Shown piece after piece: positions 658 to 53,148 of a stretch of 64,000 nucleotides of DNA (positions within the stretch are counted from its first letter, which is position 1; each line of letters begins with the position of its first letter). Source of the DNA: a virus. Lineage: Duplodnaviria; Caudoviricetes. The notes beneath the pieces were generated by a model. It saw only the letters and a list, made by a program, of their open reading frames with translations. It was not told the DNA's origin and did no database searches. Made by a program: the position numbers and the translations under genes. The stretch is taken from IMG/VR virus record IMGVR_UViG_3300021431_000003, positions 32,001 through 96,000 of that record; one strand, 5' to 3'.

Positions 658-689
658 GACCCCGCAGGAACATAGAGTCCTGCGGGGTT
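658..689. terminator. Intrinsic terminator hairpin between the convergent RNAP gene and tRNA cluster
   Basis: GACCCCGCAGGA / TCCTGCGGGGTT stem. Confidence 0.8.
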
Positions 690-760
690 AAATTAGGAGA
701 ATTGAAATAAAATATTGTGAAACAAAACGTGGAAATTGTGTCAGCTTATTAAAAAGCTGA

Positions 761-835
761 TGGTGACCCCTACGGGAATCGAACCCATGTTGCCAGAATG
801 AAAATCTGGAGTCTTAACCGCTTGACCAAGGGGCC
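761..835 (-). tRNA. tRNA-Glu(TTC), CCA encoded
   Basis: Reverse complement GGCCCCTTGGTCAAGCGGTTAAGAC...CCAGA-TTTTCAT-TCTGG...GGTTCGATTCCCGTAGGGGTCACCA folds as a cloverleaf. Confidence 0.96.
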
Positions 836-836
836 A

Positions 837-849
837 TTATAAATAAGTT
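837..849 (-). promoter_or_regulatory. Late-type promoter AACT-N6-TAA immediately upstream of tRNA-Glu (a second copy at 1045-1057 precedes tRNA-Leu(TAG))
   Basis: Minus strand reads AACT-TATTTA-TAA and AACT-TAATTA-TAA; the predicted start sites lie within a few nt of the mature tRNA 5' ends. Confidence 0.65.
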
Positions 850-866
850 ATATATTTAATAAAATA

Positions 867-953
867 TGGTGCCGCTGACGGGACTCGAACCCGTATGGAT
901 ATTTCACCGACGGATTTTAAGTCCGTTATGTCTGCCTATTTCATCACAGCGGC
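867..953 (-). tRNA. tRNA-Leu(TAA), long variable arm, CCA encoded
   Basis: Anticodon arm ACGGA-CTTAAAA-TCCGT, T-loop GGTTCGAGTCC, acceptor stem GCCGCTG/CAGCGGC-ACCA. Confidence 0.95.
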
Positions 954-959
954 ATTTGA

Positions 960-1042
960 TGCGGGTGACAGGACTTGAACCTGCACGTCATAAGACATGA
1001 GAACCTAAATCTCACGAGTACTGCCAATTTCTCCACACCCGC
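960..1042 (-). tRNA. tRNA-Leu(TAG), CCA not encoded (3' end reads ATCA)
   Basis: Anticodon arm TGAGA-TTTAGGT-TCTCA, T-loop GGTTCAAGTCC, acceptor stem GCGGGTG/CACCCGC. Confidence 0.92.
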
Positions 1043-1089
1043 ATTTATAATTAAGTTATAGTTATTGTAAAACAAAAAAAATAAGACTG

Positions 1090-4945: not shown

Positions 4946-6109
4946 ATGTTTGGACCATCTTCAATCAAATTGAAATGTAGACTACTCTATAAGAATAGTC
5001 TAGTCAATAACATCTATGAGGCATGTACTTGTTGTTATGACAATACTAAGAATATCAATTATTTAGAAAAGAAAGATTATATCGGCAAGAGAATCAATGC
5101 TGGTCATGAATCTATTCTAGAACATGGAAGACTTGCTATTCTTTTTAATGATATCCCTTATAGTCTTCATAATGATATTATTGAACTTATAGGATTAGAA
5201 TACTCTAAGTGGTTAGAATTCTATACTGTACAACTTGAAAATAGAAACTACAATCTTATTGTCAATGGTAGTATCAGAGCATATAAGCATTTTCTTAACA
5301 ATCTTGAAGCAGATGTATATGATAGAAACGATATTATTCGTGATATCTGTAAGATTCTTAGAGAAAATACTGTAAAAGAACTCTATGGTAAGAGCAAGCA
5401 TATTAACTTTGATGATTTTGTCGATGTAGAACCAGATGTATTAGATATTGATATACCTAATACTGGTATTGACTATGATATCGTTTGTGAAAAATCTATC
5501 GATGGTGTTGTTACTAATGGAGAAGAAGGTATTAAGAGAATCACACTTGGAGCAGATGAACTATTTGTTACAGAACTCTCTGATATCAAAGAAGTTATTC
5601 TTCACTATGGATTTAATAAAGCTGTAATCTATAATATTCTTCCTATCACAGTAGTATTCTATAACATGTCTCGTACAGCAACACATCAACTTGTACGTCA
5701 TAGAAATGCTATTACACAAGAATCTCAAAGATATGTAAATGCTAAGAATGCTACATTTACTATTCCTGTACCAGATTATACAGATGAAAAAGAGTATACT
5801 GTAGAAATCTTTGGTAATAAAGTTACAGCACCTCTTACTGTACTTGCAACTGGTCTTACTAAAGTATATGACCAACTAATTAGACAGGGTCTTAAGAAAG
5901 AAGAAGCAAGAGCATTCCTACCAGCAAATATCAATTGTGGTAGATTATATATGACATTCACTTTATCTAATCTTATTGCTTTCTTAAATCTTAGAACAGA
6001 TCCACATGCTCAATATGAGATTAGAAAGTATGCTGAAGCTATAATTGACTTGATTACTTCTATTCCAGACTATGCTATTCTAATTGATAATTATAATAAT
6101 ATAGTGTAA
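4946..6109 (+). CDS. thyX: FAD-dependent thymidylate synthase with an extended, two-lobed architecture
   Basis: GHESILEH, SRTATHQLVRHRNAITQESQRY, KEEARAFLP and FLNLRTDPHAQYEIR motifs. Confidence 0.92.
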   Translation: MFGPSSIKLKCRLLYKNSLVNNIYEACTCCYDNTKNINYLEKKDYIGKRINAGHESILEHGRLAILFNDIPYSLHNDIIELIGLEYSKWLEFYTVQLENRNYNLIVNGSIRAYKHFLNNLEADVYDRNDIIRDICKILRENTVKELYGKSKHINFDDFVDVEPDVLDIDIPNTGIDYDIVCEKSIDGVVTNGEEGIKRITLGADELFVTELSDIKEVILHYGFNKAVIYNILPITVVFYNMSRTATHQLVRHRNAITQESQRYVNAKNATFTIPVPDYTDEKEYTVEIFGNKVTAPLTVLATGLTKVYDQLIRQGLKKEEARAFLPANINCGRLYMTFTLSNLIAFLNLRTDPHAQYEIRKYAEAIIDLITSIPDYAILIDNYNNIV

Positions 6110-6126
6110 TTATTTATTAAACTACC

Positions 6127-6140
6127 AACTATAAAGTAAT
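6127..6140 (+). promoter_or_regulatory. Late-type promoter AACT-N6-TAAT driving a non-coding RNA
   Basis: AACT-ATAAAG-TAAT; predicted +1 (6138) coincides with the first base of the first stem. Confidence 0.65.
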
Positions 6141-6372
6141 GCATTAATGATGTGTGCTGTCAGTATGTGATGGCTTTTTCCGTCGTTATGCATTTGCGCA
6201 AGAGCAGAAGCTGTATTTGCTTTATATTACAGCTGTGTGTGCTGACATAGGCGGATCTGAGCTTGACACTAGCGACTAGGTACCATCGCTGAATAAGTGT
6301 CTGTAAGACTCCCCCACTCCTAGCACTGCAAGCACAATTGTGTTAAGCCTATCATTGCAGCTTTCTGCTCTT
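6138..6372 (+). ncRNA. Unrecognised, highly structured non-coding RNA (transcript probably extends to the terminator at ~6460)
   Basis: GC-richer ORF-free island with stems 6138-6152/6181-6194 and 6200-6215/6356-6372, inner helices, a possible long pseudoknot, and its own promoter and terminator. Confidence 0.7.
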
Positions 6373-6432
6373 ATTATTTTTTAAAAGTTCCTATACTCAG
6401 GGTCATAAAATACTGTCCTTTCAAAAAGAATT

Positions 6433-6462
6433 TGAACCCTAGCACAAAGCTAGGGTTCATTT
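6433..6462 (+). terminator. Intrinsic terminator ending the ncRNA unit
   Basis: TGAACCCTAGC-ACAAA-GCTAGGGTTCA followed by TTT. Confidence 0.8.
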
Positions 6463-6473
6463 CTGCCGTTTTG

Positions 6474-6487
6474 AACAAATTAGTAAT
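6474..6487 (+). promoter_or_regulatory. Late-type promoter AACA-N6-TAAT
   Basis: AACA-AATTAG-TAAT, 26 nt upstream of the ATG at 6513. Confidence 0.7.
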
Positions 6488-6512
6488 ATATTCAATGAAA
6501 GGAGTATATCTC

Positions 6513-9500
6513 ATGGAAGAATATAGAAATATACTTGCTAACAAGTTTATGCGAGATACTAACTATATAATTATCAAAGATACTGATGACCTTGAAGAAC
6601 TAGAACGTCAATGGGAATTATTTCAATCTTCTCTTACTGTAAGACAACAGAGACTAAGCGATGATAGATCTCTTCAAATTTGGAATATGACTAATCAACA
6701 GCATTATGAAACTTTAAAAGCTGAATTGATGGGAGACTTACAGAATAAACTAGGTATAGAAGATGATGAACCTATATCTATTGAATATGAACCAGATGAT
6801 GATGAAAAGATAGATGATAGTGAAATTACAAACTTTGTTAATATGTCTTTTGATGATTTTGAGATTCCAGATGATGAGAACGAAATCTCTGAACCTATGA
6901 AAGAAGAATCTACTATACCAATTGATCCAAATCAAGCATATATAGATAATCATAGATGGAAGATTGGATATGATGGTATTGACAGAGAGAAAGATAAGAT
7001 TGCTGACCAATATGAGATTGATTCTAATATTAATATTATCGGTGGTGTATATGGTGAAACACCTAAAGAACTGTTAGACAATCTTGAAAAAGCATATCAA
7101 GCTTGGAACTCTCAAAATCAAGACCATAGAAAAAAGTCTGATGATAAGTGCAGAGAAATCTATGGTATGTCTAATATAGATAGATATAATAAGCTTAAAG
7201 GCATTTTTGTAAAGATGTCTGTTCCAAAGACAGATAAAGATGTATCTAAGAATATTAGTAATAATACTAATTCTTCTGAAGAAGCATTAAGCGAATTTAC
7301 TCTAGAAGTATATCGTAATATGCAAGTAGTTAATGAAGCAGAATCTAATAAAGCCAAACAACATAGAAGACTCAATGATACTCCATACTTTACTCCAAGT
7401 GAAATGATTGATATGGGAGTACATGGTAATCATAATTACTATTGTAAAGATGCAGATAATGATGGTCTTATTACAAGAGTAAGAATTCCAACTTGGTTTG
7501 ATTCTTATAAAGATATGTGTATGGACCATATCTTTGAAGACTATACTAGAGATTGGATTGATACATTAGACTATCTATACTCAGATTTTGAAGAGATTAA
7601 AGAGTCTGGTAATGAAGAAAAGATTCTTGCTCGCAAACAGTCTATTCTTGATTTGGGTTGGAATCCAGAGATTCCATTTACTAGACGTAATAGACAATTA
7701 GCATCCAAACGTGTATCTAAGCTATTAGATAAATCTAGTCCAATGAATCTCTTTATTAATCTTGATAAAGAAGTTCCAGATGAAGCTATAACAGATGAAC
7801 CTGTTACAGAAAATGCATCTAAAGATACGCATCAGCCTATCTATATGGTATTTGTACAAGGCAAAGCTCCTGTCGTATCAACTGCTATTAAGAAGGTTAC
7901 TAATTCACCATTCTCTCACATTGGTATCTCTTTTGATTCAAAATTAAATACTGTACACACATATAATATGGTACCAAAACCTGGCGTAGTAAAAGAAACT
8001 TTGTCTGGTTATAAAGATAATATCATTACAGTAATGGCATTCTTTGCTCCTACAGATATCTATAACACAATGAAAGACACCGTAATGGATTATTATATCA
8101 ATGCTAAGAAAACTGTATATGACTTTGGTATTATTTTTAATAAGCTAATCAATAAGAATGCTAGAGTAGTAAACGATAAGTACCATCAAGTATGCTCTAC
8201 ATTTGTTGATACTGTGCTTAAGTCTGGTAAAGTAACGTTAGATAAAGATGCTAATGTACCATCTCCAGCAGAATTATATAATGCTACTAAGTCTATGCCT
8301 AATAAGATTATTGAAGTATATTCTGGTCCAGCAGATAAATATGATAGTGTTAAAGTAGATAAGAAGATGAATAAACTCTTAGAAAAGGGCACTAAAGCTA
8401 TTGATGAAGCAACTGATATTGCTTCTCAAATTAAACTTGTACCAGCAACCCAATCTGATACTGAAAATATGTATAATTGGGAAATGGAGTCTATTGATAA
8501 ATCTCTTCAATCTGATAGTAAAGTTATATCTTGCATTAAACAAGATGTACAAGATTCTATCAAAGATACTAAGATGATTACTTATAATAACAAAACTATC
8601 GGTATGCTAACTTGCTGTTATATAGATAACGGTGAATGGTGGTATATTGGCGAGATTTATCTAATACCAGAATATCGTAATAAGGGTATTGGTACAAAGC
8701 TTATCAAAGAACAAATGCAATCTCGCGATAAAATCAAACTTCAAGTAGCATATAGTAATAAGGGTGCTATAAAGTTGTATAAATCTCTCGGATTCAAAAC
8801 CATAAATAAAAATGATAAAGGTAAGATGTATATAATGGCTTACGATAAATCTCAATCTTTAGAAGAAGCTGTAACTGATTTAAAATCATCAGAATCTAAT
8901 GATATATATCATAATATAGAGGATTGGGAGTCTGGTAAATCTAACTTATTATGGATTACTGGATTATCTGGTTCTGGTAAATCTACTATAGCTAAAGAGA
9001 TATCTGGAAATAACATAGAACATGTAGAACTGGATAATCTTCAAAGAGCTAAAATGGATAACTGGGACCACACTGGTTCTACACTTATGGATGATTATAT
9101 TAAATCTAAAGGTGGTCTTACTAATATCTTTTCTTATGTAAACGATTTAGATGAAGTTAGATGGAAAGACTTAGTGTCTAATGAAACTGAATGTCCTAAG
9201 CAATTCAATGATTTCTTTGAATATATAATTAAATATGCTAATACTCATAAAAATAAAAGATTCGTTGTAGAAGGCGTACAAATTGCAATGTGCTCCAAAA
9301 ATACTACTATAGCAAAGATATCTAAATACCCAGTTATTATAAAAATGAATGGTCCTCTCAAAACAGAATTTCGTAGAGAGAAACGTACCATACAAACAGG
9401 TATAGATAAAAATGATACCTTTATAAAAATATTAAAGACTGTTGCTAATAGACATAAAAACTGGTGGAAACAAAACTTTTATATGGATGATTGGAAAGAA

Positions 9501-52401: not shown

Positions 52402-52593
52402 AAAGATACTCCTTTCGATTATCAGCTTACCTATTATCATATGATTATGATTAATAGATATCTATTATAAATTTGTTATTCATGCTTTAAAAACAGAACA
52501 ATTATATAATGAAAGACCTAAGTGTATGATTACTCATATACAAATAAAATCTAATTGCAATTATATTTTATATTTTAAAAGGAGGATATTCTC

Positions 52594-53055
52594 ATGGGAC
52601 TTTATACAAATCCTAATACAATGGAAGCAGCTCATGAAGTTGAGATGGAACTCAATATGGATGAGCTTCTTGAAGCATTCTACTATGATGACCATTATTC
52701 TGATTCTGATGAAGAGAAGCGTGAACTTCTTGAATCTGCTGATACTCTTCTTGAAGCAAAGAAGATTTCTCGTAAAACAATTGTTCGTCTTAACAAGAAT
52801 GATGATCTGACTCGTCGTACTGGTATGGCAGCACTTCAGCTTGCTAAGGATAATAACGATGCTCTTTGGAAGAAGCTTGTTAAGAATCGTATCATGGAGC
52901 GTAAGCTTCTTGCTGCTATTAAGAAGAAGTATGCTAATAAGGCTCAGCTGGCTGCTCGTAAGGGACAGCGTGCATATGTTTCTGGTCAGGGTACTGTAGG
53001 TAACCAGAATGTTAAGAAGATGCAGCCTAAGGAAATGTCTAAGACAAGAAATTAA
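52594..53055 (+). CDS. Probable head-internal DNA-binding protein (acidic propeptide plus basic mature part)
   Basis: Late promoter 52497-52510; acidic N-terminus with LLEA/LLES/LLEA followed by a Lys/Arg-rich segment. Confidence 0.6.
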   Translation: MGLYTNPNTMEAAHEVEMELNMDELLEAFYYDDHYSDSDEEKRELLESADTLLEAKKISRKTIVRLNKNDDLTRRTGMAALQLAKDNNDALWKKLVKNRIMERKLLAAIKKKYANKAQLAARKGQRAYVSGQGTVGNQNVKKMQPKEMSKTRN

Positions 53056-53148
53056 TAACATAAAAATAATGGTATCGTATGAGTGACGATATCATTGTGT
53101 GCATATTTCGATTGTCATGATAACAATCGGTTCCTTTCTTTTTATAGG

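Follow-up and report, generated by a model that had tools for sequence, protein, structure and literature searches.

C-rich seeds complementary to Shine-Dalgarno (SD) sequences are found in several Firmicute small RNAs, among them RsaE/RoxS and the 3' domain of RNAIII. In phage T4, translational masking of the genes e, soc and 49 occurs in long early transcripts. For jumbo phages few regulatory RNAs are known, and we know of none from the uncultured gut group to which the phage analysed here belongs. In the icaR mRNA of Staphylococcus aureus, a UCCCC motif in the 3' UTR pairs with the SD in the 5' UTR of the same message (PMC3868564). The late promoter of phage AR9 was mapped experimentally as AACA-N6-TA/G, with the last base serving as the start site (PMC5312081).

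The locus described here lies in a stretch of 64,000 nucleotides (hereafter the window), corresponding to bases 32001–96000 of a phage genome that is 223,528 bp long, bears direct terminal repeats and has a GC content of 33%. The phage carries split multisubunit RNA polymerase genes, and one RNA polymerase subunit has its nearest counterparts, at ~25% identity, in AR9 and PBS1, two jumbo phages of Bacillus; the phage family consists of uncultured gut jumbo phages of ~215–235 kb. Nearly every gene of the phage is preceded by a strong SD of the type AAGGAGG or GAAAGGAG. A 403-nt spacer holds the finding, with thyX (4946–6109; Pfam Thy1) on one side and, on the other, a plus-strand gene whose 1151-aa product combines GNAT and P-loop domains; the ATG of this gene is at 6513, and its ribosome site (6496–6515, plus strand) has TGAAAGGAG at 6496–6504. 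Relatives of the locus were gathered from Logan, viral and metagenomic assemblies by way of the proteins encoded on either side, yielding 25 distinct sequences of about 15 lineages in which the neighbouring protein was 47–98% identical; a megablast search of named phages with the locus gave no match. We tentatively read positions 6416–6423 of this spacer as a functional single-stranded, C/U-rich anti-SD seed in the 3' tail of a phage non-coding RNA (ncRNA), and hold this reading with slightly less than even confidence.

The distribution of the word AAC[AT]-N6-TA in the phage genome revealed a threefold higher density in intergenic than in coding DNA, with 117 intergenic matches located mostly 14–37 nt before start codons, and the word also occurred directly before tRNA genes. 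Each of the three tRNA genes for Glu, Leu and Leu (window 761–1043, minus strand) had it directly upstream, so that the phage polymerase appears to transcribe them. In letters, spacing and position before genes, the word resembles the late promoters of AR9, which belong to the non-virion RNA polymerase; it differs in that the fourth base, A in AR9, may here also be T, and the polymerase subunit of our phage is only ~25% identical. On the basis of its letters the word matches an AR9-type late promoter, and the start sites given below are predicted ones. Promoter P1 of the ncRNA (6127–6138, plus strand; AACT-N6-TA, predicted start A6138) comes directly after the stop codon of thyX, and its fourth base is T, whereas P2 of the next gene (6474–6485, plus strand; AACA-N6-TA, predicted start A6485) fits AACA-N6-TA/G exactly and lies at the usual distance, 27 nt, before the ATG; both were kept in all relatives. 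The terminator (6433–6472, plus strand) consists of an 11-bp hairpin at 6433–6459 and an interrupted U-tract, and all relatives exhibited a plus-strand hairpin with a U-rich tract behind it, the hairpin itself differing in sequence.

The original prediction held that no promoter is visible on the minus strand at this site. A search of the minus strand of the 403-nt spacer indeed found no phage-type promoter motif, and the sole sigma-70-like match on that strand (9/12) sits before the hairpin, which is followed there by a T-run. On the plus strand, no ORF with a preceding SD was found from P1 to the terminator. The promoter motif and the conserved terminator, together with the helix covariation reported below, agree with the predicted expression from the plus strand, and from these signals we conclude that the plus strand is probably the one transcribed. 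For the seed reading it counts that a promoter form validated in AR9 stands at its normal place, that all relatives have the terminator and that 10 pairs of the RNA covary.

We further conclude, from fold score and covariation, that 6138–6472 probably encodes a structured plus-strand ncRNA of ~335 nt (~330–335 nt, without an SD-preceded ORF). The fold z-score was −4.9 for the plus strand and −3.4 for the minus strand, and the consensus fold of six homologues comprised 56 pairs, and compensatory changes were seen at 10 of these. A long helix with arms at about 6200–6215 and 6355–6372, whose pairs covary among the six homologues, closes a GC-richer core domain (6200–6372, plus strand); both arms differ between the window and the relative L076, with complementarity kept. 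Rfam searches with the window and 11 relatives gave no match at gathering score, and permissive thresholds returned chance-level matches only (E of 0.37 or worse). With its covarying helices and its place outside Rfam, the body would represent a new RNA family independently of the tail's role.

Besides the covarying helices, the core region (window 6138–6372) contains the conserved islands GCTTTATAT, GGTACCA, TAAGAC and GTTAAGC. The body between promoter and terminator measured from about 110 to about 460 nt in the relatives L073, L074, L100, L105 and L107; spacers between thyX and the GNAT gene in relatives include unrelated GC-rich structured cores, and that of L074 has two promoter-plus-terminator units in tandem. 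To judge by these comparisons, the spacer is a hot spot of non-coding RNA exchange. Terminator loops were reverse-complemented between close relatives whose stems are identical, with ACAAA at window 6444–6448 against TTTGT in L079 and, at a second terminator (window 670–677), ACATAGAG against CTCTATGT in L115; both cases give the impression of an inversion of the entire palindrome.

The AU-rich 3' tail (6373–6432, plus strand) lies between the closing helix and the terminator and is unpaired in the consensus fold. The RNA body and even the terminator hairpin vary greatly among the 25 relatives. Analysis of the words shared in the 90 nt before the hairpin revealed TCCTTTC as the most shared 7-mer (7 of 15 lineage representatives), TCCTTT as the most shared 6-mer (8 of 15) and TCCTTTCG as the most shared 8-mer (5 of 15); AT-only words reached at most 3–5 of the 15 lineages, and the C content around the motif is 16%. 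The anti-SD heptamer is the best conserved tail element across distant relatives. In the window the motif TCCTTTC(A) occupies 6416–6423 on the plus strand (TCCTTTC itself 6416–6422) and ends 10 nt from the hairpin at 6433–6459, and in relatives it stands 8–60 nt before hairpins of unrelated sequence (e.g., L084, L105 and L077). Its predicted unpaired probability was 0.47–0.87 in 9 of 10 lineages, against RNA-wide means of 0.37–0.44; the folding models thus predict a single-stranded tail with an accessible motif. Both the rank of TCCTTTC and TCCTTTCG among shared words in such a C-poor context and this excess of unpaired probability over the RNA mean favour the seed reading.

Against it, roughly half of the lineages (L073/L107, L074, L083, L103, L104 and L085) have the motif in degraded form or not at all, from which it follows that the motif is dispensable. 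The same losses would suit a tract that does not pair with ribosome sites and either is free of selection or is kept for protein binding, processing or stability near the 3' end; the C-to-T variants of the motif in L078, L089 and L098 could then be simple decay, and no target emerged from the ranking or the permutation test described below. Such a reading has to contend with the fact that the motif, C-rich as it is, is the word shared most often among tails that cannot otherwise be aligned, that it recurs at a second conserved locus and that it exactly complements SDs of the class found in the phage, and we consider this reading a real but rather unlikely alternative to the seed. Two further candidates were rejected: pairing of the tract within the ncRNA itself, as the plus strand of the RNA contains no GGAG or GAAAGG word, and a bidirectional terminator formed with the A-rich stretch after the motif, which would apply to the window clade only, the A-tract being missing in relatives.

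The minus strand from 6423 to 6374 reads GAAAGGA, CAGTATTTT (9 nt), ATG ACC CTG AGT ATA GGA ACT TTT AAA AAA TAA, so that the letters, spacing and codons of the initiation region originally predicted at 6374–6425 were confirmed. In plus-strand terms, the 'anti-start codon' CAT is at 6404–6406, 9 nt upstream of TCCTTTC, and TTA, the minus-strand TAA stop, is at 6374–6376. The pattern of an SD hexamer, 4–10 nt and ATG occurs 192 times in the 223.5-kb genome, 125 of these being called gene starts; its background inside coding DNA is 0.11 per kb per strand, and therefore ~0.09 occurrences would be expected in the spacer on both strands. Finding the pattern there is unusual, yet not impossible by chance, and the tract was rated as more than chance because it is conserved in relatives. 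The GGA-to-ATG spacing of 9 in the window is the modal spacing of the phage's real ribosome sites, and the 12 nt beside the motif, compared with real spacers plus ATG, matched at 5.86 of 12 positions versus 5.23 of 12 for shuffles (p about 0.04), a TIR-like geometry that speaks for the seed. In 5 of 8 lineage groups a CAT precedes the motif by 3–9 nt, the letters between them being unrelated, and CAT was commoner there than other C-containing triplets. This placement of CAT fits the predicted anti-start codon and also fits a minigene.

That the minus-strand ATG at SD-like spacing also suits a real initiation site weighs against the seed reading. A minus-strand SD with a start codon at 4–10 nt and a short frame was found in 5 of 8 lineage groups; in these the SD is strong, the ATG follows at 4–9 nt and the spacer sequences differ, and such tolerance in spacing is typical of initiation sites. 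The minus strand might accordingly be read as the true initiation site of a minigene of few codons whose peptide is itself irrelevant, comparable to the lambda bar minigenes. We regard this as very improbable, given a minus strand that has no phage promoter motif, is antisense to the conserved plus-strand unit and, in the window clade, lies behind the hairpin and T-run on its own strand. Moreover, three clades have a spacing of 16–20 nt or no ATG, and a second ncRNA of the phage carries the CAU-plus-anti-SD layout on its transcribed strand. The 10-codon frame of the window (6374–6406, minus strand) was judged to be no gene: the corresponding peptides of relatives have 2, 3, 5, 8, 9–11, 15 or about 31 codons and unrelated sequences, and a minus-strand gene was rejected because the peptide is unconserved, the promoter motif is absent and, in the window clade, a hairpin and T-run lie directly upstream on that strand. 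The relic of a lost minus-strand gene was likewise dismissed, no called gene or long frame being present there in any relative, as was a type I toxin-antitoxin system, the minus-strand peptide being short, non-hydrophobic and unconserved.

Comparison of the tail with the next gene revealed that 6416–6423 is the exact 8-bp complement of that gene's SD at 6496–6503, a match that extends to 9–10 bp in L076, L099 and L108. An extra flanking pair is kept as A:U in the window and L076, as G:C in L099, L108 and L084, and as G.U in L100, which is suggestive. However, cognate tail/SD pairs were no better matched than non-cognate pairs (permutation p 0.17–0.24), which counts against the seed reading, as does the finding that the next gene's SD is partly paired in folding models with or without the tail. 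Against the 192 ribosome sites the tail reached −14.4 kcal/mol, compared with −11.7 for shuffles, of which 2 of 100 attained the tail's value, and with −11.2 for the tail against internal coding windows. This advantage and the exact 8-bp match are in keeping with a seed, although better pairing with ribosome sites is expected of any anti-SD word: since nearly every gene has a strong SD, any C/U tract pairs, and complementarity alone is therefore weak evidence. In an RNAduplex ranking of ribosome sites the next gene came 60th of 192; the ranking was not used to name targets because its top matches were driven by long AU-rich pairings. Neither RNAduplex over the 192 ribosome sites nor the cognate permutation test singled out a specific target. 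Pairing of the tract with ribosome sites appears plausible on these comparisons.

P2 sits between the anti-SD tract and the SD of the next gene, an order that allows for masking in cis only: on read-through transcripts the tract would pair with 6496–6503 and block translation of the next gene, and transcripts from P2 (start near 6485) would be without the tract and hence translated. The succession of an SD-complementary arm, an internal promoter and the SD (6416–6423, P2 at 6474–6485, 6496–6503) is a likeness to the masking in T4, and the scheme itself is the one described for the T4 genes e and soc. Besides the exact complement and the interposed P2, the maintenance of the extra pair by A:U, G:C and G.U flanks and a helix within 1.7–4.6 kcal/mol of the optimum in folds of the read-through RNA are consistent with such masking. 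Unlike the T4 case, a full terminator hairpin stands between the arms here, the helix is only 8–10 bp and is not favoured in folding models, with a pair probability of 0.01–0.25, and the cognate covariation was not significant (p 0.17–0.24). In addition, the motif is also conserved at 53131–53140, where the next gene has a poorly matching SD of GGAGG type, and P1 and P2 are of one promoter type in the window and offer no obvious temporal switch. Masking restricted to cis is, in our estimate, improbable.

The seed reading gains from parallel cases in the same phage family, one at 53131–53140 and one in a second ncRNA (L094:166–300). The first, TTCCTTTCTT (53131–53140, plus strand), is a second conserved anti-SD tract, flanked by a hairpin on each side, in the 3' UTR belonging to the gene of a 153-aa virion protein; it was kept in the complete genomes G001, G004 and G005 before unrelated hairpins and was missing in G002 and G003. 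Of the two recurrences that had been predicted, the one at 53092–53140 therefore held up, with its motif conserved in three other genomes, whereas the one at 690–720 proved unconserved: the TTCTCCT before the tRNA-cluster terminator (695–701, minus strand) has given way in the closest genome to a word without complementarity, is missing from the others, and was judged chance. Window 52561–53061 contains two overlapping long frames on opposite strands. The plus-strand frame (52594–53055) is the real gene, with a strong SD, a promoter word and a C-terminus conserved in relatives, and weakly matches a family of virion structural proteins; no SD precedes the 166-aa frame on the minus strand.

The second candidate small RNA, located outside the window (L094:166–300; genome 102565–102700), is a promoter-to-terminator unit with an AR9-type promoter. 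Its RNA would have a 5' hairpin with CCUCC in the apical loop, followed by two single-stranded UUCCUCU motifs, the first preceded by a conserved CAUGA; the promoter, both UUCCUCU motifs (invariant) and the terminator were kept in 6 of 6 complete genomes examined. At genome 9245–9345 (L095), a promoter word is followed by about 50 nt, a 13-bp hairpin and then a 14-nt stretch directly before the next promoter. This 14-nt stretch is identical to window 6409–6421 and ends in TCCTTT, and the arrangement could be either another small unit, the third, or a repeat that arose by chance.

Genome-wide analysis of 74 directional terminators revealed no enrichment of anti-SD words on their 5' side, which is a point against the seed reading as well. 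An anti-SD 5-mer occurred in the 30 nt before the stem at 5 of the 74, against 5.5% for random windows and 3.2% for windows of sense coding DNA, and the heptamer was present at only 2 of the 74. The enrichment at terminators that the original prediction put up for testing, and the phage-wide silencing system that it suggested, were not upheld; the sequence comparisons point instead to a few conserved anti-SD elements located in non-coding RNA, with no general terminator rule. Three conserved loci of the phage family with anti-SD tracts in non-coding transcribed RNA are what could be said for silencing by anti-SD tails immediately 5' of terminators throughout the genome, but with the low counts of both 5-mer and heptamer and with the site at 690–720 unconserved, we regard a system of that breadth as highly improbable.

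A narrower generalization is that the gut jumbo phage family encodes a small set of 'anti-TIR' RNAs, accessible modules in which a short AU-rich spacer separates a CAU from an anti-SD word. No fewer than three conserved loci would carry them: the tail at 6404–6423, the 3' UTR at 53131–53140 and the second ncRNA, which has CCUCC and a pair of UUCCUCU motifs. We put this forward as a doubtful proposal. If it were true, UCCUUUC on the one hand and UUCCUC/CCUCC on the other would address different SD subclasses, and the 'anti-TIR' RNAs would constitute a layer of translational control over host or phage mRNAs beside the phage RNA polymerases.

Returning to the seed at 6416–6423, we propose that the ncRNA would start near 6138 at the phage late-type promoter, fold into its conserved structured body and end at the terminator (6433–6472). 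Its unpaired tail would present UCCUUUC, often with CAU a few bases upstream, in the arrangement expected of a typical ribosome site of the phage copied in antisense, and would base-pair with GAAAGGA-type ribosome sites of mRNAs, thereby hindering 30S binding. The adjacent gene for the 1151-aa protein would be the sole candidate target present in every genome, and it could be reached either in trans or, on read-through transcripts, in cis. We infer the production of the RNA, its pairing with mRNAs, the identity of its partners and any effect on translation from the signals described above. If the tract works as proposed, these phages would control translation by small RNAs besides taking over transcription, and the conserved motifs offer precise, mutable handles for reporter and interactome work.

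Compared with RsaE/RoxS and RNAIII, the ncRNA would likewise be a stand-alone promoter-to-terminator unit with a short, accessible, C/U-rich motif complementary to SDs, and the second phage ncRNA shares with them a motif that is present in more than one copy and in a loop. Unlike those RNAs, the phage ncRNA matched no Rfam family by covariance models in sequence or structure, and its motif is UCCUUUC rather than a CCC run, placed in a linear 3' tail beside the terminator. It also differs from them in being encoded by a jumbo phage and preceded by a promoter of the phage RNA polymerase, and its seed is a candidate one. The likeness to icaR lies in an anti-SD motif near the 3' end of the transcript, shortly before the terminator (PMC3868564), and the site at 53131–53140 resembles icaR further in belonging to a true 3' UTR. 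In contrast to icaR, the RNA from 6138–6472 has no ORF or SD of its own, and any pairing would therefore be with another RNA or with read-through sequence. The anti-SD seed would thus most likely be a regulator of a known kind, familiar from Firmicute small RNAs and from the 3' UTR of icaR, and what is new would be the RNA family that carries it and the jumbo phage that hosts it.
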